The position numbers were made by a program, and so were the translations under genes. Under the pieces are notes generated by a model that worked only from the letters and a program-made list of their open reading frames with translations, was not told the origin of the DNA and ran no database searches. A stretch of DNA of 45,517 nt from Acidimicrobiaceae bacterium. GTDB lineage: Bacteria > Actinomycetota > Acidimicrobiia > Acidimicrobiales > MedAcidi-G1. Positions 8,241 to 33,305 of this stretch are shown in pieces (position 1 is the first letter of the stretch; every line of letters begins with the position of its first letter). The stretch lies in assembly GCA_002727895.1 (NCBI GenBank), contig PBUO01000057.1, forward strand, positions 18,157 to 63,673. Reading direction: 5' to 3'.

Positions 8241-8256
8241 GGTCACTGCCTCGGCC

Positions 8257-18623: not shown

Positions 18624-20870
18624 ATGAACCTCGACCGCGAGATGTCCCGCTACCTCGTCCTTGACGAGGAGTCGGTCCGGGTGGCCTTGGAGAAGATCGA
18701 CCGGAACGATGAGGGAGTTGCCGTCTGCGTCGACACCAGCGGCTTGCTGGTCGGGGTTCTAACCGACGGAGACCTTCGACGATGGCTAGTTGGCCAACCC
18801 TTGCCCAACCTCGACCAGCCTGTGGGCGGGATCGTCAACACCAGTCCGAGGACGGCCCGAATCGACGACGACGCCCGGCGGATCGAGTCCCGATTCGACC
18901 AGGACGTGCACCTGATCCCGCTGCTCGACGACGATGGCCGGTGCGTGGCCATCGCGCGACCGCGCTCTGCTCTCTATGCCCTAGGCGACCGAACGGTCGG
19001 CCCGGGCGCCCCCTGCCTCCTAATCGCGGAGATCGGCATCAACCACAACGGCAGTCTCGACCTTGCCTTCCGGATGATCGACGAGGCGGTCGAGGCCGGA
19101 GCGGACTGCGTCAAGTTCCAACTCCGTGACCTGTCATCCCTTTACTCCAACGCAGGAGATGCCTCCGACCACCGAGAAGACCTTGGCTCCCAGTACACCC
19201 TCGACCTGCTGACCCGCCACCAACTGACGGTCGACGAGATGTACCGGGCGCTGGACCACTGTCGGGACAGCGGGGTGATCCCACTGGTGACACCCTGGGA
19301 CGAGGCCAGCATGGAACGCCTGGAAGAATACGGAATCGACGGCTACAAGACCGCGTCGGCCGACTTCACAAACCACCCGTTCCTGCGCCGTCTAGCACGC
19401 ACCGGCAAACCCCTGATCTGTTCGACTGGAATGACCTCTCACAGCGAGGTCCGGGAGTCGGTCGACCTACTCATCAGCGAGGGCTCGCAGTTCGCCCTTC
19501 TCCACTGCAACTCCACGTATCCAGCACCATTCAAGGATGTCAACCTCCGATACATGGAGACCCTCCGTGAGATCGGCGGATGTCCCACTGGCTACTCCAG
19601 CCACGATCGGGGTATCAACGTCTGCGTCGCCGCCGTCGCCCTAGGTGCCGACATCATCGAGAAGCACTTCACGCTGGATAAGGAGATGGAGGGGAACGAC
19701 CACCGCGTGAGCCTCCTACCCGGCGAATTTGCGGCCCTTGTGACGGGGATCCGGGAGGTAGAGGAGGCGAAGGGGTCTCCGGGCGGACGGTCGCTGACCC
19801 AGGGCGAGATGATGAATCGGGAGTCTCTAGGCAAGAGCCTGATGGTGAATATGTATCTTGAGCCGGGGACGGTCATCGAGGAGCACATGCTCGATATCCG
19901 AAGTCCGGGAAGGGGCCTTCAGCCCAACCGCCTCGCCGAGGTCGTCGGCCTCCCGGCCCGTCGACCACTTAAACCCGGCGACGTCCTTTACCCCTCGGAC
20001 GTCAGCGGGGCCTCGGCAGTCGCGAGGGAGTACTCGTTTGATCGCCCCATGGGTATCCCCGTCCGCTACCACGATCTTGCAGACCTGGAGCCGCTGTCCA
20101 ACTTCGATTTCCTAGAGTTCCACCTGAGCTACAAGGACCTCGACGTCGACGAATCGCTCTTCTTCGACCAGCCACTGGACCTCGACCTCGTGGTCCACTC
20201 CCCCGACCTGTTCGAAGGTGACCACCTCCTCGACCTGAGTTCGCCCGACCCCGACTACCGGGCAGTGTCGATGCGGCACCTCCAGCGGGTAGTCGACCTC
20301 ACCCGCCGACTCGCTCCCCGTTTCACCAGAGCAGACCGACCACTGGTAGTGGTGAGCGTGGGCGGCTTCACCCAACACGCTCCAGCCGACGAGAACGAGA
20401 AGGAGGAGCGCTACCGACGCGTGGCCGACGCCCTCGCCACCCTCGACCTTGACGGAGTCGAGGTTTTGCCCCAGACCATGCCTCCATTCCCCTGGTACTT
20501 CGGCGGGCAGAGGTTCATGAACCTTTTCATCGATCCGAAGGAAATAGCCGCCTTCTCCAGGGAACATGGCTACCGGGTCTGCTTCGACACCTCCCACTCG
20601 AAGTTGGCCTGCACCCACCACCACTGGTCGTTCAGCGAATTCGTCCAGACGGTGGCTCCCCACACCGCTCACCTCCATCTTGGCGACGCCGCAGGAGTCG
20701 ACGGCGAGGGACTCCAAGTCATGGACGGAGACATCGACTGGCGGATGCTCAGCACCGAACTCCGAAAGTTGGCTCCGGATGCCTCGTTCATCCCCGAAAT
20801 CTGGCAGGGCCACAAGAACAGCGGCCAGGGCTTCTGGCGAGCCCTCGAACTTCTGGAGCCCTACTTCTGA
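18624..20870 (+). CDS. Multidomain nonulosonate synthase: CBS pair + NeuB-type synthase + SAF + xylose-isomerase-like TIM barrel
   Basis: 748-aa uninterrupted ORF. The domains by residue range are:
- aa ~8-115: CBS-like.
- aa ~128-385: NeuB motifs LLIAEIGINHNG, CVKFQ, GYSSHD, EKHFTLD.
- aa ~398-460: SAF-like.
- aa ~470-748: AP_endonuc_2/xylose-isomerase-like pattern (CFDTSHS, HLHLGDA, IPEIW). Confidence 0.85.
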   Translation: MNLDREMSRYLVLDEESVRVALEKIDRNDEGVAVCVDTSGLLVGVLTDGDLRRWLVGQPLPNLDQPVGGIVNTSPRTARIDDDARRIESRFDQDVHLIPLLDDDGRCVAIARPRSALYALGDRTVGPGAPCLLIAEIGINHNGSLDLAFRMIDEAVEAGADCVKFQLRDLSSLYSNAGDASDHREDLGSQYTLDLLTRHQLTVDEMYRALDHCRDSGVIPLVTPWDEASMERLEEYGIDGYKTASADFTNHPFLRRLARTGKPLICSTGMTSHSEVRESVDLLISEGSQFALLHCNSTYPAPFKDVNLRYMETLREIGGCPTGYSSHDRGINVCVAAVALGADIIEKHFTLDKEMEGNDHRVSLLPGEFAALVTGIREVEEAKGSPGGRSLTQGEMMNRESLGKSLMVNMYLEPGTVIEEHMLDIRSPGRGLQPNRLAEVVGLPARRPLKPGDVLYPSDVSGASAVAREYSFDRPMGIPVRYHDLADLEPLSNFDFLEFHLSYKDLDVDESLFFDQPLDLDLVVHSPDLFEGDHLLDLSSPDPDYRAVSMRHLQRVVDLTRRLAPRFTRADRPLVVVSVGGFTQHAPADENEKEERYRRVADALATLDLDGVEVLPQTMPPFPWYFGGQRFMNLFIDPKEIAAFSREHGYRVCFDTSHSKLACTHHHWSFSEFVQTVAPHTAHLHLGDAAGVDGEGLQVMDGDIDWRMLSTELRKLAPDASFIPEIWQGHKNSGQGFWRALELLEPYF

Positions 20871-22117
20871 GCCCCTAATCTGAGCCCGACAGCCCCACGG
20901 AGGTCGTGGAACCGGGCGACGAGGTCCTCCACCTCGCTGAGTTCATCGATGGCCTCGGCCGGAACCACGAGCCCGTCAGCGGTGGCGCGGCGTAGGACAG
21001 TCGCCACAGGTCCGTAGTCACCCGGCGTGGATCGACCTGAGGCCTGCCGGAGCCTCTTGGCCCCCACCGTCACTCCGGCGGGGAGAGCACCCAAGAGGGA
21101 GCGGAGGCCAGACGCTGCGGAGCCCCGCCAGGTCCGTCCCTCGGGCACGGGATCGAGGTCTTCGTAGAGCCGATGGTTGCATTTGACGAACACCTCAGCA
21201 GCGGTGCGGACCACCTCAGCGCATCCGTCAGCGTCGAGTCCGAGTCCTTCGGCGGTCGAGTTTGAAATCGTCGCGACAAAGAGGGAGCGCTGTTCCGCGA
21301 ACTCTGGGCCGGCCCACCACTCGGGGAACCAGACCATCCCCTCCTTCTCCCCCTCGGCAACGGGTTGGATCGGGTGCTCGACGGAACGGAGCCACTGGAT
21401 GGCGTCCGAACTCACGAAGTCGCCGAGGAGGTGGACCACCATCGCTTGGTGGACCTCTGCAGCGTGACCCGAGTCGTAGTCCTCGACCGAACCCCATGAC
21501 CTCCGCCACACCGGGGTGCGGAGAACCGCGTAGCAAGTGGCCATGGTGTAGTCCCGGAAGGCGAGGCGAAAGCGCTCCTCGGGATCCGCCGACCTGACCG
21601 AAAAGCCGCCCATCGAGCGATACGTCCGATGGAAAGTGAGCCTGCGAAAGCCACCCGCCGGCAAGAAGGATACGACCTGGCCCATGCAACCGATCGCCTC
21701 AGGATCCTCGGCCAGAGTAGACAGAGCCACACGGAGTCCGCTCGGCAAATGGAACTCGTCGTCGCCGAGCATCACCGCGTAGGGGGTGGTGATCATCCTC
21801 CCCGCGAGACGAAGACGGGTCGACATCGAGCCGTTGTCGTGGATGTAGGTGATCCTCGGATGCTTGATAAGGGCGGATGTCACCCGATCCGGCAGAGACA
21901 CATCGGAGCCGTCGACGATCACGACGGATGCGCTCCGTCGCGCCCAATACCGGATCAGCCGTAGCAGGTAATCCTGGCGACGGTAGGAGGGCACCACTAC
22001 GGTGAGATCGGCCAGCCCGTCCTCCTCCGGCGGGACGAAGCCGTCCATCAGGACCTCTAGACACCAGTCCTCAACGGCGCGAGTCGTCGGAGTGAAGGGT
22101 CCCGGATCCGCGATCAC
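20861..22117 (-). CDS. GT-A-fold (GT2-like) glycosyltransferase-domain protein with an uncharacterised C-terminal half
   Basis: 418-aa ORF with LTVVVPSYRRQDYLLRLIRYW...VVIVDGS and a DxD-like MLGDDEF motif. The GTG at 22117 gives a GTGA overlap with the upstream stop. Its 3' end overlaps the convergent gene by 10 nt. Confidence 0.65.
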   Translation of the reverse strand: MIADPGPFTPTTRAVEDWCLEVLMDGFVPPEEDGLADLTVVVPSYRRQDYLLRLIRYWARRSASVVIVDGSDVSLPDRVTSALIKHPRITYIHDNGSMSTRLRLAGRMITTPYAVMLGDDEFHLPSGLRVALSTLAEDPEAIGCMGQVVSFLPAGGFRRLTFHRTYRSMGGFSVRSADPEERFRLAFRDYTMATCYAVLRTPVWRRSWGSVEDYDSGHAAEVHQAMVVHLLGDFVSSDAIQWLRSVEHPIQPVAEGEKEGMVWFPEWWAGPEFAEQRSLFVATISNSTAEGLGLDADGCAEVVRTAAEVFVKCNHRLYEDLDPVPEGRTWRGSAASGLRSLLGALPAGVTVGAKRLRQASGRSTPGDYGPVATVLRRATADGLVVPAEAIDELSEVEDLVARFHDLRGAVGLRLGAQK

Positions 22118-22740
22118 GGCGCTCCGCCCGGCGTCTCCACTCCGTAATGCCGCCGGACCTCGTCCAGTGCTTCAAGCAGCGATCCGTGGATTGACCGGTG
22201 GTTCTCGCTGGGCGGTAGGCCATAGTCGGCGCCAGCCTCGGCGAGGAAGACCATTCCGCAGCCTGCGGCCATCGCCGCCAGACAGTCGCGGGGATCGTCG
22301 CCGACGTAAAGAGTCCTCGCGAGATCTAGGTCATGATCTGCCGCTGCCTCGAGAAACATCCCAGGCGCAGGCTTCCTGCGTAGCGAATTCGAGTTCACTG
22401 GGTCCGGGCACATGTAGACGTCCAGGATCGTGATGCCCTCCCGCTCCAACTCAGCAACCATCCGCCGGTGGACCGACTCCAATTCCCTGGGATCCAAGGC
22501 GCCCGAGGCGATCCCGGCCTGATTGGTGATCACGATGAACTCGAAACCATCCTGGGCGAGGTGTCGCATGGCCTCGACGGTGTCCTCGCGGAAATCGAAC
22601 TCCTCCCACGACCCCACGTACCGCCCGCGACCCACTGACCGGTTGATGGTCCCGTCCCGATCCATCAGAAGGACACGTCGGCCGCCACCGTCCGCCCGGC
22701 TTCCGGGATGGGAGGCGCTGCCAGGAAGCCGATCGATCAC
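22114..22740 (-). CDS. HAD-IIIA phosphatase, GmhB-like (heptose 1,7-bisphosphate phosphatase family)
   Basis: The track ORF is trimmed to the GTG at 22740 (GTGA overlap). It has the motifs MDRDGTIN (DxDGT), ITNQAGI, RKPAPGM and YVGDDPRD. It lacks the Cys-rich zinc loop of E. coli GmhB. Confidence 0.75.
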   Translation of the reverse strand: MIDRLPGSASHPGSRADGGGRRVLLMDRDGTINRSVGRGRYVGSWEEFDFREDTVEAMRHLAQDGFEFIVITNQAGIASGALDPRELESVHRRMVAELEREGITILDVYMCPDPVNSNSLRRKPAPGMFLEAAADHDLDLARTLYVGDDPRDCLAAMAAGCGMVFLAEAGADYGLPPSENHRSIHGSLLEALDEVRRHYGVETPGGAP

Positions 22741-23276
22741 CGTGAGGCGGAGCGGAACGACCCCAACGCCCGGTCGCGTTCGGACACGACGGCCGGTTCG
22801 GCAGGCCATTCCACTCCGAGGTCAGGGTCGTCATAGCGGAAGCCCGTATATAGGTCTGGCCGATAGACGTCGCCCATCTGGTAGTGCACGATCGTGTCGT
22901 CCTCCAAGGTCATGAAACCGGTGGCACAGCCACTGGCCACAAGAACTGAGGTCCGGTCGCCGACCTCGAACCGGAAGGACTCATGAGCGCCATAGGTCGG
23001 CGAGTCGGGCCGGTTATCGACGATTACCACGACGGCTGCACCCGCGACCACTGTAAGGATCTTCTGTTCCGCAGAGGGTGCCTTCTGGTAGTGAAATCCC
23101 CGAAGAGTGTGCCGCCGGACGTTGAACGACACGTTGCTCTGGCAGATCTCGAAGTCAATCCCCTCGTTCGCCAGCGATTGGCGACAGTAGGACCTCCAGA
23201 ACTCGCCCCTACCATCCCTATGCACTTCCGGGCTGATCCGTAGTACCCCGTCGATTGAGGAGAGGGAGACTCTCAC
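22737..23276 (-). CDS. RmlC-like cupin (NDP-4-keto-6-deoxy-sugar 3,5-epimerase family)
   Basis: The track ORF is trimmed to the GTG at 23276 (GTGA overlap). It has the motifs DGRGEF, RGFHYQ, KILTVVAGAAVVVIVDNRPDSPTYG, GCATGF and DPDLGVEWP. Confidence 0.8.
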   Translation of the reverse strand: MRVSLSSIDGVLRISPEVHRDGRGEFWRSYCRQSLANEGIDFEICQSNVSFNVRRHTLRGFHYQKAPSAEQKILTVVAGAAVVVIVDNRPDSPTYGAHESFRFEVGDRTSVLVASGCATGFMTLEDDTIVHYQMGDVYRPDLYTGFRYDDPDLGVEWPAEPAVVSERDRALGSFRSASR

Positions 23277-24439
23277 GGCCTTACTCCCCGATCTCCCCTG
23301 CCGTCGGACATAAAACGATTTGGCTGGCCGTCCCATCGCGAGCCGATCAGAGCGACATCGAGCGTCCGATCAGCCACGAACTGGTGCTTCTCCAACTCGA
23401 TGAAGGTCTGGGTCGGCTCCTGCCAGGGGGTGAGCCGCTCTTCGTCCCACATCATCTCGTTCATCACCGGCCCGAGCGCCTCATAGGGGAGGCGGGAGAA
23501 GAAGGGAATGATGCACATCCCTCCTGCGCGAAACCAGAAAAAGAAGTCGCTCGCCATCACGAGCGCCGCGTCGCTGAGAAATCCTGGCGATTCGGGCTTC
23601 GAGAATGCCACGTCATCGATGTCCAGTTCGCCGACGAGATTCCGATAGTGCCGACAACCGGACTCGTCGGAGACCACAAGGATGCGATGATCGGGAAACC
23701 GCCTCTGAAGGTACTCATAGCCTGCAATGAACTCGTCGGATGTCGCCCTCCGGCCCTCGTCGATGCCCAGACGCGAGTACCGGCACTGCCACGAAACGTA
23801 AGGGCCGATGTCAAATCCGGAGGGACGGTGCGGCTCGAACTCAGCTGGTGAGAAGAGGGTGCGATCCACCACGCCACCATCGGCTTCGGCCATCAGAACG
23901 TTGAACACGTTGGCGCAATCGCGAAAGAAAGGGCGCCTGTCGCGAACAAAGTCTTCAAATAGTAGGTGGGTCCGGCCATGACCCTCCAAGACTGAAGGAA
24001 GGTCGTCTGGCGAGACCCTCCAGGCCCGCCCGACTTCCGGATCTAGAAGTGCCGACACGATTCCAATGAAGTCATCGAGGAGCTCGTCGACGTCCGAAGC
24101 AGCGTCGGAGCGACCGCTCCAATCCGCGCCCGGTTCGACGAAGACGAACTCGGTCCGAACATCATGCGCCACCACGAAGCGTGCAACGCCGAGCATATGG
24201 AGGAGGTCCCCGTAGCCGAGCCCAGTGACCTCCGTGTCAAAGACCAGAACAAAACGATCGAGGTCCCGGTCGATCGCCCGTCGAAGCCTTCCCGCCTCGT
24301 CTCGCGCCCACGCCATGCGCCGGCCGTCCTCTCCAGGTAGACCGTCGTAGACCGCTCGGGCCCGTGATAGGACGGCCTCACCACCAGGAACAGACTGGAG
24401 GGACCTCCTCACCGCCCGTCGAACAGCCCTCATGGACAT
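23273..24439 (-). CDS. Hypothetical protein (possible GT-B/GT9-like transferase)
   Basis: 388-aa ORF with an ATG start 5 nt below the upstream stop. I recognise no family. The C-terminal part (ILVVSDESGC...FLSDAALVMASDFFFWFRAGGMCIIPFFSRLPY) is reminiscent of the C-terminal lobe of heptosyltransferase-like GT-B enzymes. Confidence 0.5.
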   Translation of the reverse strand: MSMRAVRRAVRRSLQSVPGGEAVLSRARAVYDGLPGEDGRRMAWARDEAGRLRRAIDRDLDRFVLVFDTEVTGLGYGDLLHMLGVARFVVAHDVRTEFVFVEPGADWSGRSDAASDVDELLDDFIGIVSALLDPEVGRAWRVSPDDLPSVLEGHGRTHLLFEDFVRDRRPFFRDCANVFNVLMAEADGGVVDRTLFSPAEFEPHRPSGFDIGPYVSWQCRYSRLGIDEGRRATSDEFIAGYEYLQRRFPDHRILVVSDESGCRHYRNLVGELDIDDVAFSKPESPGFLSDAALVMASDFFFWFRAGGMCIIPFFSRLPYEALGPVMNEMMWDEERLTPWQEPTQTFIELEKHQFVADRTLDVALIGSRWDGQPNRFMSDGRGDRGVRP

Positions 24440-24444
24440 GGCCG

Positions 24445-25872
24445 TCAGGCGAGTTCCCGGTGGAGGTCAGAAGAAGACAATGGCACATTGCCCATCCTGT
24501 CCACCTGGATCGCCGCGGCAACTGACCCTAGGAGGCCGGCTTCCCACGGATTGGCTCCCCGCGCAGTCGCCATCGCGCTGCTGATCATCAGAGAGTCCCC
24601 GGCGCCCGCGACATCTCGTGGTGTCGGGTTCAGTGCCGGGATCCGGTCGGTATGAATGTCTGCACCTACATCCTCCCGGTGGAGCAGCGCCCCCTCCGCT
24701 CCCATCTTCATGATGATCGTGCGAGCTCCCGATGTGATCCGCAGCTTCTCGGCGAGAACAACCAGTCCGTCCTGTTGGTTGCGGAGGCTGACTCGCGCTT
24801 CGTGCTCGGTGGGTGTCAGGAGGTCCATCCCCCGGAATCGGGCCACGTCCCCAATCTGCGAGGAGGACTGGCTGTCAGCCACCATCGGGACCCCACGCTC
24901 CCTGGCCCGATCCGCTAGGTCGTCGACGAGGTCTTGGGGAAGGCAGCCGTAGTTGAAGTCGGAGAAGACCAGGAGATCGCAGGATTCGACGATTTCCTCG
25001 AACCGGGCGACTATCCCCTCCCGGACGAAAGCCTCGATCGGCGCCTGGTGAAGCCTGCTGACCCGGAGCAACGTCTTGCCGGCGGCCCGGTACCTCTGCT
25101 TGAGCGGCGTGGGTCGGACCCCGTCGACAAAGAACGCTGCGTCCACCCCCAAGGAGGCCAGCTGGGATTCGGCAAAGGCGCCAGCCTCGTCCTCGCCGGC
25201 GACGGTGAGGCAAGTCACCCCGGCGCCCAGCCCCGCGGCGTGGGCGGCGACGATGCCCGCTCCTCCGACGTAAGTCGTCGTGTCCACCGGGGTCACGACG
25301 ATCGTCGGGTCCTCTTGGGACATCCCCAGCGGTTCACAGGTCACGTACTCGTCAACGATCAGATCACCGACCACACAGACCGACAGAGAGCCAAAGCCGT
25401 CTACCAGTTCCCGGACGCCGGCGACGTCGATTCCGTGCCGGTCCAGGTAGTCGGCCGGCAGACTCCGGACGACTCTTCCGGCATCCTCCAGATCTCGGCG
25501 GATGAGGTCGAGAGAGGAGAATGTGGCCTCGCCCGAACTAAACACGAGTTGACCACCGTAGGAGGACAAGACCTCGGCCTCCGGATTCGGATACTCGCGG
25601 TGTTCGTTGCCCTTGACTACTACGTCCGGACGGAGTCGGCCGACCACATTCTCGACTGGCTCGTCTACCAGAAAGCACTCATCCACGTAACTGTTGGTGG
25701 ACAGGCTCTCTAACCGCAGGGACTCCGGTATGTGGGCGGCATCACCGGCGATCCTGTCGCTCTGCACGCCCACGATGAGGCGGTCGCCGAGGTCTCGTGC
25801 GAAGCGAAGGAGACGCAGGTGGCCCGGATGGAGGACGTTGAAGTTGCCCGATACGAAGACCACTTTCGTCAT
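24445..25872 (-). CDS. Bifunctional HldE/RfaE-like protein with reversed domain order (N-terminal cytidylyltransferase-fold nucleotidyltransferase, C-terminal PfkB sugar kinase)
   Basis: 475-aa ORF.
- aa 1-~130: FVSGNFNVLHPGHLRLL (HxGH), GDRLIVGVQSD, PDVVVKG, matching RfaE domain II.
- aa ~160-475: VCVVGDLIVDEY...GGAGIVAAHAAGLGA...DVAGAGDS, matching RfaE domain I/PfkB.
The ATG is preceded by GAGG. Confidence 0.8.
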   Translation of the reverse strand: MTKVVFVSGNFNVLHPGHLRLLRFARDLGDRLIVGVQSDRIAGDAAHIPESLRLESLSTNSYVDECFLVDEPVENVVGRLRPDVVVKGNEHREYPNPEAEVLSSYGGQLVFSSGEATFSSLDLIRRDLEDAGRVVRSLPADYLDRHGIDVAGVRELVDGFGSLSVCVVGDLIVDEYVTCEPLGMSQEDPTIVVTPVDTTTYVGGAGIVAAHAAGLGAGVTCLTVAGEDEAGAFAESQLASLGVDAAFFVDGVRPTPLKQRYRAAGKTLLRVSRLHQAPIEAFVREGIVARFEEIVESCDLLVFSDFNYGCLPQDLVDDLADRARERGVPMVADSQSSSQIGDVARFRGMDLLTPTEHEARVSLRNQQDGLVVLAEKLRITSGARTIIMKMGAEGALLHREDVGADIHTDRIPALNPTPRDVAGAGDSLMISSAMATARGANPWEAGLLGSVAAAIQVDRMGNVPLSSSDLHRELA

Positions 25873-25918: not shown

Positions 25919-26983
25919 TCATGAACCGTCTATGGAGAGAAGGCAACGGCCAACCACCTTTCCCGTTCTCATTGAGTCGATTGCATCACCGACGTCGTCT
26001 AGTGCGAAGCAGGATGTGACGATCTGGTCAAGCTGAAGGGTGTCTGTCCCCAATAGGCCCATCAGCCGAGGGATGTCCACCGTCGGATTTGCCTCTCCTC
26101 CGTGGGACCCCATCAACTCCTTGCCGAAGTAGAGGGGAAGTGGAGCGACTTCTACTCTTTCCCCGACCCCGGGGACGCCGACCATCACCACCCTCCCCGA
26201 GGACGAGGTGAGCCGAAGGCCCATCTCGACGACCATCGGAAGACCCGTGTTGTCCACGAAGACGTCGGTTCCCGACGAACCGACGACTTCTCGTAGCCTC
26301 GCCTCAACCTCTGGAAGACTGCCGTCCACCAGATGGGTCGCTCCCAATTCCGCTGCGAGTTCAAGGCGATCCGCGTACAGGTCGACGCCGACAATCGGAC
26401 TCGCTCCGTGCGCGGCGGCAGCCTGAACGATGTTGAGACCTACACCACCGCTTCCATAAACCACAATTGATTCACCCGCCTTGACCCGGGCGTTGTTCTC
26501 CACCACCCCGAAGCCGGTCGTAACCGCGCAGCCGAAGAGAGCAGCGAGGCGCCGGTCCGTGTCGAGAGGAATGGAGGTGCACCTGTTCTCGGAAACCACT
26601 GCGAACTCGTTGAATGTAGTAACCCAGCCGGCATTGACCGGTCCACCCCGCCAGGCGTAGGTCGGCGTCTCGGCCTCGATTCCCCGGCCCTTTCTCCAGT
26701 GCAGAACCACCAGGTCGCCGACCGTCACGTGTTTGACCCCAGGTCCGGTTGCGAGCACGGTCGCCGACCCTTCGTGGCCCAGCAGGTGGGGAAGAAACCG
26801 GTCTGGGCCCTTGACGCCGTCGATCTCTCCAAGTTGGGATCCACAGATCCCGCTGTAGTGGACGCGCACCAGGACTTGGCCGGCGGCAAGGTCCTCGGGC
26901 AGTGCAACCTCGTCGACGACGAGCGGAACCCGCTGCTCTGTCAGGATCGCCGCTCGTCCCGACCGGGGAAGGGATTGGTCCAT
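25919..26983 (-). CDS. Zinc-type medium-chain alcohol dehydrogenase/reductase
   Basis: The track ORF 25919..27076 starts with TTG, so I prefer the ATG at 26983 (MDQSLPRSGRAAILTEQ...). It has the motifs GICGSQ, LLGHEGSATV and VYGSGGVGLN (GxGxxG). The structural-zinc Cys loop is absent. Confidence 0.75.
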   Translation of the reverse strand: MDQSLPRSGRAAILTEQRVPLVVDEVALPEDLAAGQVLVRVHYSGICGSQLGEIDGVKGPDRFLPHLLGHEGSATVLATGPGVKHVTVGDLVVLHWRKGRGIEAETPTYAWRGGPVNAGWVTTFNEFAVVSENRCTSIPLDTDRRLAALFGCAVTTGFGVVENNARVKAGESIVVYGSGGVGLNIVQAAAAHGASPIVGVDLYADRLELAAELGATHLVDGSLPEVEARLREVVGSSGTDVFVDNTGLPMVVEMGLRLTSSSGRVVMVGVPGVGERVEVAPLPLYFGKELMGSHGGEANPTVDIPRLMGLLGTDTLQLDQIVTSCFALDDVGDAIDSMRTGKVVGRCLLSIDGS

Positions 26984-27125
26984 CGGATCGTTTCGCCAGT
27001 CGACTCCCGCCGGACTCCCGGCGACTCGTTGGCACGACACTAACGGGAGGTTCACCCTGTCGAAGGTCAACCCCAAACTCGGCGACCAGCGCCCCCTTCA
27101 GCGCTTCGGTCTCAAGAGGCGGGAC

Positions 27126-28196
27126 TCAGAACGGACCCTGGTAGCTCGTGTCCGGCTGGTCGAGGCGACGCTCCCCTCGTTCAGCTGGCGTGAAGGCCGC
27201 CGGACGGCCGACGACCGCGGCGGTCCGTGCCGCGATGTCCTCAGGAAGCGGGTAGTAGCCGTCGGCGAGGGCGGGCGAGGTGGGCGTCGGATGATCCGGA
27301 AAGCCCATCCGTACTGGCGACGCCAACAAGCTGGCAAAGGACCGCTCGAGGACCGCGGCAGTGATCTCGGCCGAGACCCCACCTACCACGTGGGCGTTGT
27401 CCACCACAACCAACCTCCCGGTCCGTTCCACTGACTCTCGAATCGTGTCTATATCGAGGGGCCGAATGCTCCGAAGGTCGACCACCTCGGCCGAAACGCC
27501 GGCATCTGCGAGCATCTCAGCCGCCGTAAGGCACTCAAGTGTCATGTAGGACACGCCGACAAGGGTGACGTCGGTCCCGGAACGGACCACACGCGCCCGG
27601 TCTAGGGGCACCCGGTACCGCTCCTGTGGAACGAGATCTTCGATGTTGTAGAGCCACCGGTGCTCAAGACAGATCACTGGGTCGTCCGACTCGATCGCCG
27701 CCGTCAGCATTCCCTTGGCGTCCGACGGGGTCGTCGGCATGATTACCCGGAGCCCTGGTACGTGGGCGAAAAGAGCCTGAAGGCTCTGCGAATGCTGAGG
27801 TCCTTGGCCCCAACCCCGACCGACAACCATCCTTATGACTAGAGGTGCCGAGAGCCGGCCATCGAACATGAACCGCCACTTGGCGATCTGGTTCACGATC
27901 TGCTCGAAGGAGACCAGTGCGAAATCGACTCGCTGGTGGACGAGGACCGGACGCAGGCCCGTCGTCGCAGATCCAAGGGCGATTCCGGTGACCGCATTCT
28001 CCGAGAGAGGGATGTCGAACACCCTCTCCACACCGTGGCGTTCCTGAAGACCGATCGTCGATCCAAAGACCCCTTTGGGATCCGGGACCCCGAGGCCCAT
28101 CACGATCACGTCAGGATCGTCGGCGAGCGCCTGATCTAGCGCTTCGCGGATCGCCTGACCATATCCGAGCATCCGTTCCATTGGATGTGGGGCCAT
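27126..28196 (-). CDS. ThDP-dependent 2-oxoacid dehydrogenase E1 component, beta-subunit-like
   Basis: 356-aa ORF showing transketolase Pyr and C-terminal domain hallmarks: VFDIPLSENAVTGIALGSATTGLRPV, GPQHSQSL, PGLRVIMPTTPSDAKG. Confidence 0.85.
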   Translation of the reverse strand: MAPHPMERMLGYGQAIREALDQALADDPDVIVMGLGVPDPKGVFGSTIGLQERHGVERVFDIPLSENAVTGIALGSATTGLRPVLVHQRVDFALVSFEQIVNQIAKWRFMFDGRLSAPLVIRMVVGRGWGQGPQHSQSLQALFAHVPGLRVIMPTTPSDAKGMLTAAIESDDPVICLEHRWLYNIEDLVPQERYRVPLDRARVVRSGTDVTLVGVSYMTLECLTAAEMLADAGVSAEVVDLRSIRPLDIDTIRESVERTGRLVVVDNAHVVGGVSAEITAAVLERSFASLLASPVRMGFPDHPTPTSPALADGYYPLPEDIAARTAAVVGRPAAFTPAERGERRLDQPDTSYQGPF

Positions 28197-28198
28197 CC

Positions 28199-29158
28199 TC
28201 AGGAAGAGGGGACGAGGGTGGAACGCATCGAGTCCGAAACCGGAAAGGGGCTTGACCGGGCAAACTCGACAGCCGCTCGGATCTCCTCAGCGATATCCAA
28301 AGCCACCTGCTCGCGGTCCGGCCAACCCTCCCGTCGGGCCAGGATCTCGATTGGATCGCTATCCCGCCATGATTCGAACTCCTCCTGCGTGCGGTAGCCG
28401 AGATCGTTGTCGTAGTAGGGGCCGCAATGCTCCCGCCACCGGTAGGTGGAAAACTCAAGAAAGGCCGGACCAGATCCTAAACGGATGGCCTGAACAGCAT
28501 CCTCGGCAAGCCCTGCGACCTCCTCGGCGTCGTTGCCGTCGCCCGACCACGTGCGAATTCCGTGGCCCGCCGCCACCTCGACGATGGAACGGTCCGGCGG
28601 TTGGCGGACGGACATAGGCGAGTAGACGGAGTACAGGTTGTTCTCACAACAGAACATGACCGGCAGTCGGTGGACCACGGCGAAGTTGATGCTCTCGTGC
28701 AGGATCCCTGTCTCCATCGCCCCGTCCCCGAGGAAGACGACGACGACCCGGTCCTCGCCCCGATTGCGAGCGGTGAGCGCGGCACCCACTCCGACCGGGA
28801 TGGAACTCCCCACGATTGGGGTGGCGGCCAGGAATCCTGCCTCCGGATCGGTCAGGTGCATTGACCCGCCCAGTCCGCCCGTGCATCCCGTGGCCTTCCC
28901 ATAGAACTCGGCAAGCATCCTCGCTAGGTCGCCTCCCCGGGCAAGGTAGTGAGCGTGGCTCCGGTGCCCCGAGACGACCTGATCACCATTGGCCAAGGCA
29001 CTGCAGACTCCCGCTGCAGGGGCCTCCTGCCCGATACTCAGGTGGACGGGACACCGCATCTCCTGCTCGGGATAAAGGTCAGCGACTGCCTCCTCGACCA
29101 TCCGGATCCTGAGCATCGATCGGAGCAGGTCTTGGCGAAGGGCCGACTGGTCCATCAC
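28199..29158 (-). CDS. ThDP-dependent 2-oxoacid dehydrogenase E1 component, alpha-subunit-like
   Basis: 319-aa ORF with the ThDP-binding motif GDGAMETGILHESINFAVVHRLPVMFCCENN (GDG-x26-NN). The start is the GTG at 29158 or the ATG at 29155, overlapping the upstream stop. Confidence 0.85.
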   Translation of the reverse strand: MMDQSALRQDLLRSMLRIRMVEEAVADLYPEQEMRCPVHLSIGQEAPAAGVCSALANGDQVVSGHRSHAHYLARGGDLARMLAEFYGKATGCTGGLGGSMHLTDPEAGFLAATPIVGSSIPVGVGAALTARNRGEDRVVVVFLGDGAMETGILHESINFAVVHRLPVMFCCENNLYSVYSPMSVRQPPDRSIVEVAAGHGIRTWSGDGNDAEEVAGLAEDAVQAIRLGSGPAFLEFSTYRWREHCGPYYDNDLGYRTQEEFESWRDSDPIEILARREGWPDREQVALDIAEEIRAAVEFARSSPFPVSDSMRSTLVPSS

Positions 29159-29814
29159 GGAATGAACCAGTAGTAGTCGCCCTCGTATCCGGCCTCATCG
29201 AACACTTTGACCCATCCCTCTGCGGACAGAACCGTCAAAGCCGTCAGGTTCCATGCCTCAATGCGTCGCCGTTCCTCCTCGTTCCGGTAGGCGTCGAGGA
29301 CAACGAAGGACCACTTCCGGCTGACCCGCTGAACCTCGGACAGAGCAGTCACCACCCCCGGCCGGTCGAAGTTGTGCAGCGTGTTGATAGAGACCACGAG
29401 ATCGAATGAATCGTCCTCGAAGGGAAGCTCCCTTGCATCAGCCACCTGGAGATGGTCCTCCATCCCCTCTACCGCGTTCTCCACGGCGTACTCGCTGACG
29501 TCTATGCCCGACACGGTGAGGCCCGGGATCGCCTCTGCGAAGTCCTTGAGCATGAAGCCCTTGGCACAACCGACGTCCAGCAGCGAGTGGTCTCCGGTGA
29601 GGCCATAGAACTCGCGGAAGGTCGGCACCACGGGCTGCCAGAAACGAGGATGGTAGTGAAATCCACCGTATCCGGTCCGGCGGTCGCCATCGAAGAAGTC
29701 CCGATCAAACCGCCGCGCAGTAGCCCGGTCCTCCTCGGTCTTTTGCTCTTGGCGCTCGTCGAGGTTCCGCTTCGTCCTCGGGTAGTTCTCGAGGAGATCG
29801 ATCTCACTGCCCAT
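29155..29814 (-). CDS. Class I SAM-dependent methyltransferase
   Basis: The track ORF 29155..30093 is trimmed to the ATG at 29814 (MGSEIDLLENY...), 2 nt after the upstream stop. It has SAM motif I (LLDVGCAKG) and the acidic loop SGIDVS. Its GC content is visibly lower than its neighbours. Confidence 0.8.
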   Translation of the reverse strand: MGSEIDLLENYPRTKRNLDERQEQKTEEDRATARRFDRDFFDGDRRTGYGGFHYHPRFWQPVVPTFREFYGLTGDHSLLDVGCAKGFMLKDFAEAIPGLTVSGIDVSEYAVENAVEGMEDHLQVADARELPFEDDSFDLVVSINTLHNFDRPGVVTALSEVQRVSRKWSFVVLDAYRNEEERRRIEAWNLTALTVLSAEGWVKVFDEAGYEGDYYWFIP

Positions 29815-29816
29815 GG

Positions 29817-30923
29817 TCAGATGAAGTTCTTGTGGAGCACCGGGGTATCGACCAACTGGTCGAGATAGCGGTTGGCCTCGTCCATCCGACAGTTGTTCCG
29901 GCAGATAGAGAGGTCTAGCTCCTCCTTTACGAAGTTCCAGCAGCTCTGCCGGTTCTCCGACTTCCAGATGTCGGCAATGGGGTCCTCGTGGATATTGCCG
30001 AGGAGAAAGTTTGGATTGCCTACGTGGGCTCCACAGGCATAGACGTCGCCTGTTCCCGACACATAGAACCAGAGAGCCGGTGTACTCAGGCACGTGGAGT
30101 AGGACTCCTCGTCGCTGATCAACTTGCTCAGAGCATTGGTCCTCGCCACCACCTGGAACCCCTCGGCGTCGTACTCTGCCTGAAGAGTCAGGACGGTCTC
30201 CATGTAACGCTTGGCCGTGTAGTCCAGATGGCTGTAGCCCTTCTGGATCATGTACACGTTGTGCACGTATGGCTTGAGGACTACGTAGTCCAGACCGGTG
30301 TCCCTCGCCCGCGAGACCAGGCCATCCAAACTCTCCAGGTTGTCGGGAAGGATGAGGGACTGCGCGCCCAGGGCGACGCTCAGGTCGTTCGTCTCCCGAT
30401 GCTTGACTGCAAGTTCCAAGTTCTTCCAGACCCGTTCGAAATCCTTCTCCGCAGTCTGGTGAATGGCGGCGTATGTCTCAGCGTCACCCGCATTCATCGA
30501 AACCTTGATCCACGAAACGTGATGGAGCGCGCCCTTGATGAACTTCTCGCGCATCGGAACTGCGTTGGTCGTGAAGGACGTTTCTATCCCGTTGGCCGCT
30601 GCGTCCCCGATGATGTCGACGATGTCAGGGTTCAGCATCGGCTCGCCATCACCAGCGAACATCACGGCCTTCAGCCCAAGCGTGGAGGCCGACTCAAAGA
30701 ACCTCTGAAGGACTTCACGACGCAGGAACACGCGTTTGTAGCCCAGGTAGTCGACTGAGCAGAAGGTGCACCGGTGGTTACACGAACCAGCCGTCGAGAT
30801 CTCAGCGTAGATCGGCTCCAGTTGCCGATACCGATCCCAGTCGTCACCGGCATCGAGGATGGCCTGAACCCTGCCCGGGTGGTAGGCCAACTTGTGGCTG
30901 TCTATGCGAAACCTGTCCGCCAT
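29817..30923 (-). CDS. Radical SAM enzyme with a Cys-rich (SPASM/twitch-like) C-terminus
   Basis: The track ORF is trimmed to the ATG at 30923 (MADRFRIDSHKLAYHP...). It has the CxxxCxxC motif CNHRCTFC, GDGEP, and C-terminal cysteines (C-x19-C ... C-x12-C-x3-C). Its GC content is lower than the flanking genes. Confidence 0.8.
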   Translation of the reverse strand: MADRFRIDSHKLAYHPGRVQAILDAGDDWDRYRQLEPIYAEISTAGSCNHRCTFCSVDYLGYKRVFLRREVLQRFFESASTLGLKAVMFAGDGEPMLNPDIVDIIGDAAANGIETSFTTNAVPMREKFIKGALHHVSWIKVSMNAGDAETYAAIHQTAEKDFERVWKNLELAVKHRETNDLSVALGAQSLILPDNLESLDGLVSRARDTGLDYVVLKPYVHNVYMIQKGYSHLDYTAKRYMETVLTLQAEYDAEGFQVVARTNALSKLISDEESYSTCLSTPALWFYVSGTGDVYACGAHVGNPNFLLGNIHEDPIADIWKSENRQSCWNFVKEELDLSICRNNCRMDEANRYLDQLVDTPVLHKNFI

Positions 30924-30945: not shown

Positions 30946-31935
30946 CTAGGCCTTGTGAACGTAGTCGAGGGGCAGGGCCCCAAGGACTTCGAGGTTCTCA
31001 TCAACCCACCGGAGCGTACCGGCCAGACCGTCCTCCAGACGGACGCCGTCCGCCCATCCAAGTTCACTGCGGATCCGACCGGTCTCCAGTTCGTACCGCT
31101 GGTCCTTACCGACCCGCTCGTCGGCCAGCTGGATTACCTCCTCGGGATCCACACCAGCCAGAGAGCAGATTCGCTCAACGAGGTCCCGAATCGACACGAC
31201 CTCGGTCCCCGCAACGTGGTAGGCGGTTCCAACTCGACCGCGAGTCGCGACCAAATAGGTGGCGGAGACTACGTCCTCGACGTGGACGAAGTTTCGCTCA
31301 GATGTCCCGCCACCGTGCAGCGGCAGAGTTCTGCCGAGGCGGCAGCCCAGGGCGGCCCTCGGGATAATTCGGTAGAGCTGCTGTCCGGGTCCATAGACGT
31401 TAGAGGCCCGGGTCCAGGTCACCGGGAAGCCGTGAGTCTCGCAGAAGGTGCGGAGATGGAGATCGCAGGCCGCCCGAGACACCGCATAGGGGGTCGTCGG
31501 TGCGAAGGGAGCCTGCTCGTTCACCGGGCCGTTGGTCGATCCATATACCTCCGGGGTTGACACATGGAGGTATGACACGAGCGTCGGCAAGCGTCGAAGG
31601 TGTTCGTGGAGCCCCACTTGGGCCAGGACGTTCGTCCGGTACCAGTCCTCCGGCCGCTCCCAACTCTGGGCCACCATTCCCTGTCCGGCGAAGTTCACCA
31701 CATGCGTGGTGCCTTGCCGGTTGACCAGATCCACCAGGCGCTCCAAGTCGTGGTTCAGATCGATCCGATGGAACTGGAAACCGCGGTCGTCTCCCCATCG
31801 GTGGGCCAAGAAGAGAGGTTCGGGTTCCTCGGACCGACTCACTCCGAGAACCTCATGGCCGCGGTCCAGAAGGTGGCGCACGAAGTGCGAGCCAGTAAAG
31901 GAGTTGCTGCCTATAACCAGGAATCGTTCGGTCAT
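30946..31935 (-). CDS. Extended SDR, NDP-sugar dehydratase/epimerase-like with non-canonical catalytic motifs
   Basis: The track ORF is trimmed to the ATG at 31935 (MTERFLVIGSNSFTGSH...), an ATGA overlap. It has GSNSFTG and RASNVYGPGQ. It reads STPEVYG instead of STDEVYG, and PYAVSRAA (YxxxR) instead of YxxxK. Confidence 0.75.
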   Translation of the reverse strand: MTERFLVIGSNSFTGSHFVRHLLDRGHEVLGVSRSEEPEPLFLAHRWGDDRGFQFHRIDLNHDLERLVDLVNRQGTTHVVNFAGQGMVAQSWERPEDWYRTNVLAQVGLHEHLRRLPTLVSYLHVSTPEVYGSTNGPVNEQAPFAPTTPYAVSRAACDLHLRTFCETHGFPVTWTRASNVYGPGQQLYRIIPRAALGCRLGRTLPLHGGGTSERNFVHVEDVVSATYLVATRGRVGTAYHVAGTEVVSIRDLVERICSLAGVDPEEVIQLADERVGKDQRYELETGRIRSELGWADGVRLEDGLAGTLRWVDENLEVLGALPLDYVHKA

Positions 31936-32753
31936 ACCTCGCCTCCCCCCCTCCCGAGCTCCCCCACCATCTGGTGGATCGGATGGTCCTTGAACCACTG
32001 GTCCCAGTCGTCACCGCCAGTTGGTGCATTGGTGGACCGGGGATCAGGGTCATTCTGTGCCGCAGCCAACATCGCCGGCGTGCCGATGTCGCGGTGCACG
32101 TTGACGTTGTGCCAAGTCCCAATCCGGCCAAGGAACTCCGGAACGACGCCAGTGCTGAAGTCGGTCACTCCAGGGTGGTCGTCGAGCCAGTCGAGAACCT
32201 CCGGTTGCAGGAGGTAGACCGCTCCGTTGGCCCGTCTTCCCGGAGGGTCGTGCGCCTTTTCGTGAAAAGCCACCACGGTGCCGGCAGCATCGGTCTCGAC
32301 GATGCCGCAGGATTCCGGCGTCTCGGTGTCAAAGGTCATCATCGTGGCGACGTGGCCGCCAGGACGTTCACGGTGCGCCGCCACGAAGTCGGCGAGGTGG
32401 CATCGACAGAGGTTGTCGGCATGAGCCAACAGCGTGGGCCCGCCTACCAGGAACCCCCGACATGCCCGCAGCGTGCCTGCCGTACCGAGGAGCCGTTCCT
32501 CTTCAAATACCCGGACCCAGTTCCGGAAGCGGGGCCGGTTGAGGAAGTCCAGCATCTCGCGGCGGTGATGGTGGACGTTTACGACGACCGACCGGACCCC
32601 GATGGTCCAAAGGTCGTCCAGCCAGATCTGAAGCAGCGGACGTCCGCCGACAGGCATGAGGGGCTTGGGCCACTCATCGGTTAGCGGGGCCAGCCTGGTT
32701 CCCGCTCCAGCGGCGAGAAGTACTGCGGTGACCGAACCACTGGCCTCATCCAC
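31932..32753 (-). CDS. Sugar-1-phosphate nucleotidylyltransferase (NTP_transferase family; HddC/PtmE-like position)
   Basis: 273-aa ORF with LLAAGAGTRLAPLTDEWPKPLMPVGGRPLL (GxGTRL signature). GTG start 3 nt after the SIS gene stop. Confidence 0.8.
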   Translation of the reverse strand: MDEASGSVTAVLLAAGAGTRLAPLTDEWPKPLMPVGGRPLLQIWLDDLWTIGVRSVVVNVHHHRREMLDFLNRPRFRNWVRVFEEERLLGTAGTLRACRGFLVGGPTLLAHADNLCRCHLADFVAAHRERPGGHVATMMTFDTETPESCGIVETDAAGTVVAFHEKAHDPPGRRANGAVYLLQPEVLDWLDDHPGVTDFSTGVVPEFLGRIGTWHNVNVHRDIGTPAMLAAAQNDPDPRSTNAPTGGDDWDQWFKDHPIHQMVGELGRGGGEV

Positions 32754-32756
32754 TGG

Positions 32757-33305
32757 TCAGCCACCGTGGTCGATCAGGTGGTCGACAACGGCCAGCAGCC
32801 AGACATGGTGGGTCATCTCAACGATGTTGTAGGCATCGCTATCCACCCAAAGGTCGACGTCACCCAAGCCTCGCATCGGATTATCTTTGGCAAACCCGGT
32901 GAGACATGCCAGCCCGAGTCCCATGGCGCGGGCCTGCTCGGCTCCCCGCACCATGTTCGGCGAAGCGCCGCTGCTGCTGACCAGCACAACGAGGTCCGAC
33001 GGATCCGCGTAGGCCTCGAGCGCTCGGGCCACCCAGTTCTCGTAACCAAAGTCATTGGCAAAGCAGGTAAGGAGATCGGCCTCGTTGAAGTTGACGGCTC
33101 GGATGCCAGCCGCTTTGGTGAGGTCAACCGAGACGTGACTGGCCATCGCCGCGCTCCCACCGTTGCCGGCGAGGATCACCTTTCCGCCGACTTTGGCCGC
33201 AGTCCTGAACATTTCGCCCAACCGCCGGAGTTCATCGTGGACCACGTCGTCTATAGCCGCGGCGAGCACCGTGAAGTAGCGGTTGAAATAGTCCTCTTCG
33301 CTCAC
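32757..33305 (-). CDS. SIS-domain sugar-phosphate isomerase (GmhA-like)
   Basis: The track ORF 32757..33452 is trimmed to the GTG at 33305, which is preceded by AAGGAG with an 8-nt spacer. The longer version would overlap the upstream GT gene. It has GmhA-like motifs GGKVILAGNGGSAAMASH, ANDFGYENW and VLVSSSGASPN. Confidence 0.7.
   Translation of the reverse strand: MSEEDYFNRYFTVLAAAIDDVVHDELRRLGEMFRTAAKVGGKVILAGNGGSAAMASHVSVDLTKAAGIRAVNFNEADLLTCFANDFGYENWVARALEAYADPSDLVVLVSSSGASPNMVRGAEQARAMGLGLACLTGFAKDNPMRGLGDVDLWVDSDAYNIVEMTHHVWLLAVVDHLIDHGG

Follow-up and report, generated by a model that had tools for sequence, protein, structure and literature searches.

Pairs of E1-type subunits of the alphaKADH2 class, which depend on thiamine diphosphate (ThDP), move a pyruvate-derived two-carbon (C2) unit onto C3 or C4 keto-sugars (PMC12247030, PMC4802897). 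KbDH-alpha/beta couples pyruvate with ketones in vitro and accepts pyruvate as its only donor (PMC12247030), and the aldgamycin, avilamycin and paulomycin pairs are backed by genetic evidence (PMC12247030, PMC4802897). All products described so far are C2 branches at ring C3 or C4 (PMC12247030), and the acetyl branch is then reduced, methylated, oxidised or transaminated (PMC12247030, PMC4802897). YerE/YerF of yersiniose synthesis and the ErwE/MygE-type enzymes reach a similar end in cell-surface glycans by ThDP-dependent acyl-anion addition to a nucleoside diphosphate (NDP)-4-keto-deoxy sugar followed by NAD(P)H reduction, the same order of steps as we propose below. A 2025 review assigned branching in lipopolysaccharide (LPS) and the cell wall to YerE-like enzymes and placed the alphaKADH2 pairs with secondary metabolites (PMC12247030). 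Here we analyse a 45,517-nucleotide stretch of DNA (hereafter the window) from contig PBUO01000057.1 of an Acidimicrobiaceae bacterium, in which an E1 alpha/E1 beta pair and a Zn-dependent alcohol dehydrogenase (Zn-ADH) lie in a glycan island. A preliminary description of this DNA had named AviB, the aldgarose pair and YerE/YerF as precedents, and these are all real (PMC4802897, PMC12247030, PMC9306805). We consider it fairly probable, from comparison of related genes, that the pair would be a stand-alone ThDP carboligase of the E2-less alphaKADH2 type, adding a C2 unit to a keto-sugar that probably derives from heptose.

Positions 25919-29158 of the minus strand hold exactly three intact open reading frames (ORFs), E1 alpha, E1 beta and Zn-ADH (Table 1), in the middle of an operon; the island fills the whole 45.5 kb window, and the host genome is high in GC. 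The motifs that the preliminary description had reported were confirmed in both subunits. The ThDP motif of E1 alpha, GDG-x26-NN, is intact at residues 144-174, and the domains named in that description for E1 beta were recovered as Transket_pyr and Transketolase_C matches, with the 'PLSE' glutamate and the 'HSQS' histidine both present. The claim that the window lacks E2 and E3 also held. A scan of about 40 ORFs across the window found no lipoyl, 2-oxoacid-dehydrogenase acyltransferase or E3 domain, and a tblastn search of the window with three E2 proteins gave no match. Full synteny with the marine contig L039 allowed us to fix the gene starts in the window; by homology to L039 the true start of Zn-ADH is likely at 26983, giving a protein of 354 aa.

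To compare the pair with E1 enzymes of known type, we drew on species-representative genomes as well as plasmids and assemblies for a set of 38 related loci and examined flanks of up to 10-14 kb on each side of each pair for E2, a few loci being short contigs. The presence of E2 followed the identity of E1 alpha to the window protein. Eleven pairs have an E1 alpha 38-44% identical to it; ten of them have E2 directly after E1 beta and the remaining one is followed by a lipoyl-domain protein. Among pairs at or above 45% identity, tblastn found E2 in none within the flanks fetched. The window proteins also score under the curated cut-offs of the NCBIfam models for pyruvate dehydrogenase (PDH) E1: 259 against 394 bits for TIGR03182 (PDH E1 alpha), 276 against 321 bits for NF006667 (E1 beta), and 268 against 454 bits for NF008854. 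In the PDB, E1 alpha of the window best matches its human PDH counterpart, and E1 beta best matches that of a Thermus 2-oxoacid dehydrogenase. Neighbor-joining trees, a comparison with dehydrogenase E1 that the preliminary description had proposed, placed the pair in an E2-less clade apart from pyruvate- and acetoin-type E1, with a weak bootstrap value of 37 in the tree of the concatenated alignment. In the tree of E1 alpha alone all 37 E2-less sequences, TxnB3 and the Kibdelosporangium protein described below among them, are monophyletic, again with a weak value, 58.

The E2-less proteins differ from the E2-linked ones at conserved positions. In E1 alpha, EMRCPVHL replaces KIRGFxHL, GHRSH replaces TYREH, and YRWREHCGP, with a one-residue insertion, replaces YRFRAHSM. 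In E1 beta, GLGV stands in place of GEDV, and Arg89, Asp91, Arg127 and Trp129-Gly130 stand where the E2-linked proteins have Thr, Asn, Ala, Arg and Gln. The signatures common to the E2-less pairs can be written YRWREH[C/V]GP, EMR[C/T]P.H and HR.H. Among the 120 nearest E1 alpha homologues, the EHCG core (YRxxEHCG) occurs in every one and the strict form YRW[RK]xH[CV]GP in 111. By alignment to human PDH E1 alpha, the Tyr-to-His and Phe-to-Pro positions, His65 and Pro37, probably lie near the cofactor; the Ser-to-Cys position, Cys245, is presumably the residue after the catalytic His. The fold, the ThDP motif and the catalytic Glu and His are common to the window pair and to the alpha2beta2 E1 of pyruvate, acetoin and branched-chain 2-oxoacid dehydrogenases, whereas the window pair, only 38-44% identical to these, has no neighbouring E2 or E3 and carries EHCGP with an insertion for 'AHS', Pro for the Phe of 'RGFxHL' and His for the Tyr of 'TYREH'.

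The window E1 beta has in addition a C-terminal tail, ...RLDQPDTSYQGPF, which is common to the heptose-locus and actinomycete pairs. This extension of about 20-30 residues (window residues ~330-356) has the form ...LD.PD..F.GP[F/Y]-COOH and is found in most E2-less pairs (L001, L003-L011, L014, L028, L029, L031, L033, L041, L051, L054 and L055). It was seen in none of the 11 reference E1 beta proteins (ten with E2, one with the lipoyl-domain protein), nor in the groundwater-type pairs described below, nor in L030.

The same clade contains pairs from antibiotic pathways. A homologue search seeded with the Streptomyces plasmid member of the set retrieved TxnB3 of trioxacarcin synthesis and a protein of Kibdelosporangium banguiense. 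The K. banguiense pair is flanked by genes for an NDP-hexose 2,3-dehydratase, an EryCIII-type glycosyltransferase, a P450, a carbamoyltransferase, and polyketide synthase (PKS) and non-ribosomal peptide synthetase proteins, and we judged this cluster to be kibdelomycin-like. TxnB3 and the Kibdelosporangium homologue represent the antibiotic pairs in our tree, standing in for AviB1, AlmDI, Plm8 and KbDH. Both lie inside the E2-less clade as the sister group of the glycan-locus pairs and bear the same motifs, and the Kibdelosporangium E1 beta carries the C-terminal tail. Identity of the window E1 alpha is 47% to TxnB3 and ~50% to the Kibdelosporangium protein. The antibiotic pairs (AviB1/B2, the aldgarose pair, Plm8/9, TxnB3 with its partner, and KbDH-alpha/beta) resemble the window pair in being a two-subunit E1 in a nucleotide-sugar pathway that has no E2 or E3, in clade and signatures, and in the later reduction or transamination of the branch ketone. 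They differ from it in context, since they belong to antibiotic clusters with 2,3-dehydratases and other deoxyhexose enzymes, whereas the window pair lies in a cell-surface glycan island with heptose-nucleotide genes, an atypical RmlB-like short-chain dehydrogenase/reductase (SDR) and a DesII-like radical S-adenosylmethionine (SAM) enzyme. Window-type pairs are also distributed far outside the Actinomycetes, unlike the antibiotic pairs.

The neighbourhood of the pair is conserved over a wide range of bacteria. In ten full-length loci, which we call group A, E1 alpha (51-62% identity) recurs with the RmlB-like SDR, the GmhA-like protein, a domain-reversed HldE-like protein, the methyltransferase and Zn-ADH. 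The SDR beside E1 alpha/beta is 41-53% identical to that of the window, the methyltransferase (220-aa type) 40-64%, and Zn-ADH, found in eight loci, 38-47%; the GmhA-like SIS protein is near the pair in 8/10. The records of these ten loci are labelled Alphaproteobacteria, Ratteibacteria, Hinthialibacter, delta/Thermodesulfobacteriota and Nitrospinota, and similar loci were found in one Verrucomicrobiota record and on Azospirillum plasmids. In total the module is present under nine phylum labels, including the cultured genera Azospirillum, Azospira and Solidesulfovibrio. The pair corresponds to AZOLI_RS29260/29255 in Azospirillum lipoferum 4B, to HUE56_RS00825/00820 in Azospirillum oryzae KACC 14407 and to DMR_RS21995/22000 in Solidesulfovibrio magneticus RS-1. 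The order of domains in the HldE-like protein, nucleotidyltransferase first and PfkB second, is also seen in L003, L039, L040 and L041. The preliminary description had called such a system unusual for a cell-surface glycan locus; this is true of the literature, where we looked for heptose in connection with ThDP, with branching or with radical SAM and met no account of the module in the papers searched, but in environmental genomes the arrangement is common.

The pair in these glycan loci travels with heptose-nucleotide genes, which suggests that the acceptor is probably a keto-heptose. All four activities of an NDP-heptose module are encoded in the window: a GmhA-like isomerase, a PfkB kinase, a GmhB-like phosphatase, and a cytidylyltransferase-like domain together with a nucleoside triphosphate (NTP) transferase. 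The scores of this module all lie below equivalog cut-offs, so we infer the heptose substrate rather than read it from the models. In Solidesulfovibrio magneticus RS-1 and Azospirillum thermophilum a GHMP (HddA-like) kinase takes the place of the PfkB kinase; S. magneticus retains the SIS protein and the NTP transferase, and a NUDIX gene is present in both loci. Because two unrelated heptose kinases occupy the same neighbourhood, we argue that heptose activation is the conserved function, maintained through non-orthologous displacement. From these gene associations, a heptose nucleotide is probably the acceptor rather than a hexose nucleotide. The NTP transferase, the RmlB-like SDR, the RmlC-like epimerase and Zn-ADH form one co-directional gene string that is conserved in related loci, and the epimerase implies a 4-keto-6-deoxy intermediate.

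A second arrangement was found in groundwater Deltaproteobacteria, Planctomycetes, Azospira inquinata and a metagenome-assembled genome (MAG) labelled Bacteroidota. In this groundwater/Azospira type the companions of the pair are radical SAM enzymes and a gene of the GT9 heptosyltransferase family, which lies directly beside the pair in A. inquinata, upstream of the radical SAM gene in L052 and several genes downstream in L013. In about 12 related glycan loci, none of them of this type, E1 beta is followed by a reductase or a DegT aminotransferase, and in some loci a short-chain reductase or DegT aminotransferase replaces Zn-ADH. This is in agreement with the published fates of acetyl branches (PMC12247030). 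A further ThDP carboligase candidate, either a split transketolase or a YerE-like enzyme, is encoded a few genes from the pair in L001 (13750-15446), L040 (14780-16497), L041 (12795-14512) and L003 (14861-16648), and these loci also carry additional short-chain reductases as well as Methyltransf_21 proteins. The arrangement points to two C-C additions in succession on the same sugar, and to still larger sugars. With these loci in mind we considered a second ThDP enzyme in the window as well; tblastn of the window found none.

The radical SAM enzyme probably takes part in the chemistry of the ThDP pair. Its AlphaFold model (predicted local distance difference test score 87.6) has DesII as its best fold match in the PDB (E 3e-16, template-modelling score 0.64-0.69, identity 16-18%), with peptide SPASM maturases close behind and then BlsE and viperin. 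At the level of sequence it matches TIGR04426 weakly, and a sequence search of the PDB gave no match. DesII, the radical SAM lyase of TDP-4-amino-4,6-dideoxyglucose, shares with the window enzyme a nucleotide-sugar context, and both could make a keto-deoxy sugar; the window protein differs in its SPASM-type C-terminal cysteine set and in the low identity given above. The family is large, with 44-49% identity across many phyla, and in the contexts that we inspected (L051, L052, L053, L012-L021 and L027) its members lie beside E1 alpha/beta or a YerE-like enzyme. In one Epsilonproteobacteria MAG the locus combines a radical SAM homologue with a YerE-like enzyme, an acetaldehyde dehydrogenase and an aldolase, a set that resembles ErwE/I/J of erwiniose synthesis (PMC9306805). 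The family thus accompanies ThDP branching enzymes of both known architectures. A metagenome scan with the window protein returned nine matches, all close marine relatives, and so gave no independent test of this association. Judging from its fold model, we suspect that the enzyme acts as a nucleotide-sugar radical lyase or oxidase that would prepare the keto-sugar or process it further.

The sequences show which genes are present, their motifs and synteny, the clade of the pair and the resemblance in fold; the pathway that we build on this is a proposal in all its chemical steps, as it is in donor, acceptor and branch position. Sedoheptulose-7-phosphate would be converted to heptose-7-phosphate by the GmhA-like protein, phosphorylated to heptose-1,7-bisphosphate by the PfkB domain, and dephosphorylated to heptose-1-phosphate by the GmhB-like phosphatase. 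The cytidylyltransferase-like domain or the NTP transferase would then form NDP-heptose, which the RmlB-like SDR would turn into NDP-4-keto-6-deoxyheptose and the RmlC-like enzyme would epimerise at C3 and C5. The keto group would probably be supplied or moved by the DesII-like enzyme in a radical elimination or oxidation. E1 alpha/beta would decarboxylate pyruvate to hydroxyethylidene-ThDP, and the C2 carbanion would attack the carbonyl carbon of the NDP-keto-(6-deoxy)heptose, giving a C-acetyl tertiary alcohol. Reduction of the acetyl group by Zn-ADH would give 1-hydroxyethyl, the class I methyltransferase, whose gene lies directly upstream of E1 alpha, would methylate the product, and a glycosyltransferase of the island would install the finished sugar. 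The preliminary description had suggested both the transfer of C2 to a keto-sugar and the reduction of the acetyl branch by the adjacent ADH. The E2-less clade, the kinship with TxnB3, the clade motifs and the sugar-gene synteny speak for the transfer on comparative grounds, and the reductase or aminotransferase genes after E1 beta in related loci agree with the proposed reduction.

Several observations weigh against a C2 transfer to a keto-heptose. The RmlB-like SDR lacks the canonical Asp, and its subfamily (window, L001, L003-L006 and L008-L011) has mostly YxxxR rather than YxxxK and GSNSFSG as a non-canonical nucleotide-binding motif; the window protein itself reads GSNSFSG, STPEVYG (Pro-Glu where RmlB has Asp-Glu) and YAVSR. 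Dehydratase activity, presumed here from similarity, is thus not assured. The window has two nucleotidyltransferases, so that the NDP-hexose and heptose genes could serve two different sugars. Our literature searches found no C2-branched or C2-extended heptose in any glycan. The bootstrap values of the E2-less clade are weak, and we do not claim that the deep topology is robust. We also rejected membership of this clade as a proof of sugar function, because a member that is 55% identical to the window pair adjoins PKS genes. This E2-less pair, on plasmid pSGRIFU1 of Streptomyces griseofuscus (L029, 13992-19522; an identical E1 alpha occurs in S. rochei), is followed by genes for a 1103-aa condensation-domain protein, acyl carrier proteins, a phosphopantetheinyl transferase and type II PKS proteins with no sugar genes adjacent, and it possibly represents a non-sugar use of E2-less E1 enzymes.

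The window pair could also deliver an acyl group to a carrier instead of a sugar carbonyl, as may happen at the same plasmid locus, in which an E2-less pair adjoins acyl carrier proteins and a condensation-domain protein, or it could use a donor other than pyruvate, such as a 2-oxo acid that is hydroxylated or derived from a sugar. In LPS pathways, YerE-like enzymes do use functionalised 2-oxo acids of C4-C8 (PMC9306805), and a NeuB-type synthase of 2-oxo-acid sugars is among the proteins of the window. We nevertheless find this improbable, since the domain scans of the window proteins revealed neither a carrier protein nor a condensation domain, NeuB does not stay with the pair beyond the lineage of the window, and alphaKADH2 products are all C2 branches, with KbDH restricted to pyruvate (PMC12247030). 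Still harder to accept is that the pair is an ordinary E1 of a pyruvate, acetoin or other 2-oxoacid dehydrogenase which lies in a glycan island by accident and is served by E2 and E3 encoded elsewhere. Its fold and catalytic residues are of the E1 type, its best PDB matches are dehydrogenase E1 subunits, and a protein 99% identical to the window protein, from a marine Acidimicrobiaceae MAG, is named 'acetoin dehydrogenase' in the database. This reading seems to us very improbable in view of the scores under the NCBIfam PDH cut-offs, the E2 gene that adjoins ten of the 11 reference pairs and no pair at or above 45% identity, the clade-specific substitutions and the E1 beta tail, the translational linkage of E1 alpha to the methyltransferase, and the recurrence of the sugar-gene synteny under nine phylum labels.

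A closer alternative keeps the ThDP chemistry and changes the site of attack. The C2 unit could be added to an exocyclic heptose carbonyl, at C6 or C7, made by a diol-dehydratase-like elimination of the radical SAM enzyme, and the product would be a chain-extended sugar of the 9-deoxy-nonose type. The groundwater/Azospira pairs come with radical SAM enzymes and GT9 and have no RmlB-like SDR, so that the carbonyl there must have a source other than a 4,6-dehydratase; the fold relatives of the radical SAM enzyme (DesII, BlsE and viperin) are sugar or nucleotide radical lyases, and the active site of the SDR is atypical. On the other hand, both the window and group A show tight linkage of an RmlB-like SDR to the pair, the operon also encodes an RmlC-like epimerase that requires a 4-keto-6-deoxy ring, and all described alphaKADH2 products are branched at ring C3 or C4 (PMC12247030). 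We therefore regard an exocyclic addition as unlikely and favour addition to a ring carbonyl of the keto-sugar.

The genes of the operon are listed in Table 1. The neighbours named in the preliminary description were all confirmed: upstream of the pair the NTP transferase, the RmlB-like SDR, the radical SAM/SPASM enzyme and the class I methyltransferase, and downstream the kinase, epimerase and phosphatase, now recognised as a PfkB/cytidylyltransferase-like fusion, an RmlC-like protein and a GmhB-like HAD protein. The methyltransferase start was set by its 80% identity to a 219-aa protein of L039, and its stop overlaps the E1 alpha start (GTGA), so the two genes are translationally linked. The gap between E1 beta and Zn-ADH is 142 nt. 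Zn-ADH, the presumed branch ketoreductase, has the catalytic Zn ligands, lacks the structural-Zn cysteines and is 69% identical to the syntenic gene of L039. The GmhA-like gene is 67% identical to its syntenic L039 counterpart, and the GmhB-like phosphatase gene is also syntenic there. The sugar-1-phosphate nucleotidyltransferase matches the HddC model weakly. The best PDB matches of the RmlB-like SDR, the presumed maker of the 4-keto sugar, are all RmlB enzymes. The HldE-like protein reaches 178 bits with TIGR02198 (rfaE_dom_I) and has the HPGH and GAGD motifs. The conserved protein encoded between it and the RmlC-like gene is 39% identical to a syntenic 312-aa protein of L039 (9464-10402).

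Table 1. Genes of the operon around the E1 alpha/beta pair, in window coordinates and in order of transcription
Feature	Coordinates	Strand	Supporting matches and motifs
GmhA-like SIS-domain protein (sedoheptulose-7-phosphate isomerase-like)	32757-33305	-	PF13580 SIS_2, E 3.7e-13
Sugar-1-phosphate nucleotidyltransferase	31932-32753	-	PF00483, E 9.7e-28; GxGTR motif; syntenic in L039
RmlB-like extended SDR, atypical motifs	30946-31935	-	TIGR01181 dTDP-glucose 4,6-dehydratase, 203 bits (cut-off of 365 not reached)
Radical SAM/SPASM enzyme, DesII-like by fold	29817-30923	-	PF04055 and PF13186; CxxxCxxC at residues 96-103
Class I SAM methyltransferase	29155-29814	-	~219 aa; PF13649, PF08241
E1 alpha	28199-29158	-	319 aa; PF00676 E1_dh, E 5.7e-52
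E1 beta	27126-28196	-	356 aa; PF02779 Transket_pyr, E 2.8e-31; PF02780 Transketolase_C, E 3.2e-35
Zn-dependent medium-chain reductase (Zn-ADH)	25919-27076	-	385 aa; PF08240 ADH_N and PF00107 ADH_zinc_N
Domain-reversed HldE-like protein	24445-25872	-	N-terminal nucleotidyltransferase PF01467 (7-90); C-terminal PfkB PF00294 (164-461)
Conserved protein	23273-24439	-	no Pfam or NCBIfam match
RmlC-like NDP-4-keto-6-deoxy-sugar 3,5-epimerase	22737-23336	-	PF00908, E 4.9e-49, 167 bits; 60% identical to L039 gene
GmhB-like HAD-IIIA heptose-1,7-bisphosphate phosphatase	22114-22665	-	NF006506, 124 bits; TIGR01656, 110.7 bits (above cut-off of 84)

The island also encodes DegT aminotransferases, HisH/HisF-like proteins, an ABC exporter and many glycosyltransferases. 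The NeuB-type synthase is part of a 748-aa fusion of CBS, NeuB nonulosonate synthase, SAF and a xylose-isomerase-like TIM barrel (AP_endonuc_2) on the plus strand at 18624-20870; the fusion, ahead of which lies a gene for a CMP-sugar cytidylyltransferase, is conserved in L039 (12893-15139). At 43634-44866 a TylCIII-type NDP-sugar C-methyltransferase (PF08421 and PF08484) adjoins an NTP transferase gene at 44897-45517 that is truncated at the window edge, and from this arrangement the island may make a second, C1-branched sugar. The regions 1273-3271 and 5649-9372 encode HisF-like and HisH-like proteins, a hexapeptide acyltransferase, two DegT aminotransferases and a GFO/IDH/MocA oxidoreductase, a set typical of pathways to amidino or acyl-amino sugars and unrelated to the ThDP pair. 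A search against Rfam found no RNA family in the window.

The kind of enzyme discussed here is known; what is new is its place in a glycan locus with heptose genes and a DesII-like partner under nine phylum labels, a context not described in the papers that we searched. YerE of yersiniose synthesis is a single-chain enzyme of the decarboxylase superfamily (TPP_enzyme_N/M/C) whose architecture is unrelated to that of the window pair, and its acceptor, CDP-3,6-dideoxy-4-keto-glucose, comes from a pyridoxamine phosphate-dependent E1/E3 system. Published descriptions suggest that the same gene set is present in the phase I O-antigen region of Coxiella burnetii. The region CBU_0664-0704 has GmhA (CBU_0674), SDRs, methyltransferases and three 'pyruvate dehydrogenase' genes, and CBU_0678, an HldE with reversed domain order, is essential for phase I LPS (PMC5843353, PMC5423948). 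The resemblance is drawn from the published gene list, with CBU_0686 as well as CBU_0692 and CBU_0693 outside our sequence comparison, and the known Coxiella sugars, virenose and dihydrohydroxystreptose, are C1-branched, the E1 genes there having been interpreted as fatty-acid-related. We put forward, with somewhat less than even confidence, a widespread undescribed pathway in which NDP-heptose would be converted to a keto-heptose by the atypical SDR, the DesII-like radical SAM enzyme or both, and then branched or extended by C2 into surface sugars of nine carbons, larger in some loci, under at least nine phylum labels; the Coxiella O-antigen genes could belong to it.

The signatures YRWREH[C/V]GP and the E1 beta tail ...GP[F/Y] offer a means of finding such genes, and Azospirillum, Azospira and Solidesulfovibrio magneticus are cultured, tractable hosts that carry the module. 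The proposal offers a testable explanation for the reversed HldE and the 'pyruvate dehydrogenase' genes in the Coxiella O-antigen region, and it supplies new ketone-accepting carboligases, an enzyme type without an experimental structure, linked to a radical SAM family. If the pair does act on heptose, a class of higher-carbon surface sugars would have been overlooked that could serve as antigens, as phage receptors and in immune evasion.

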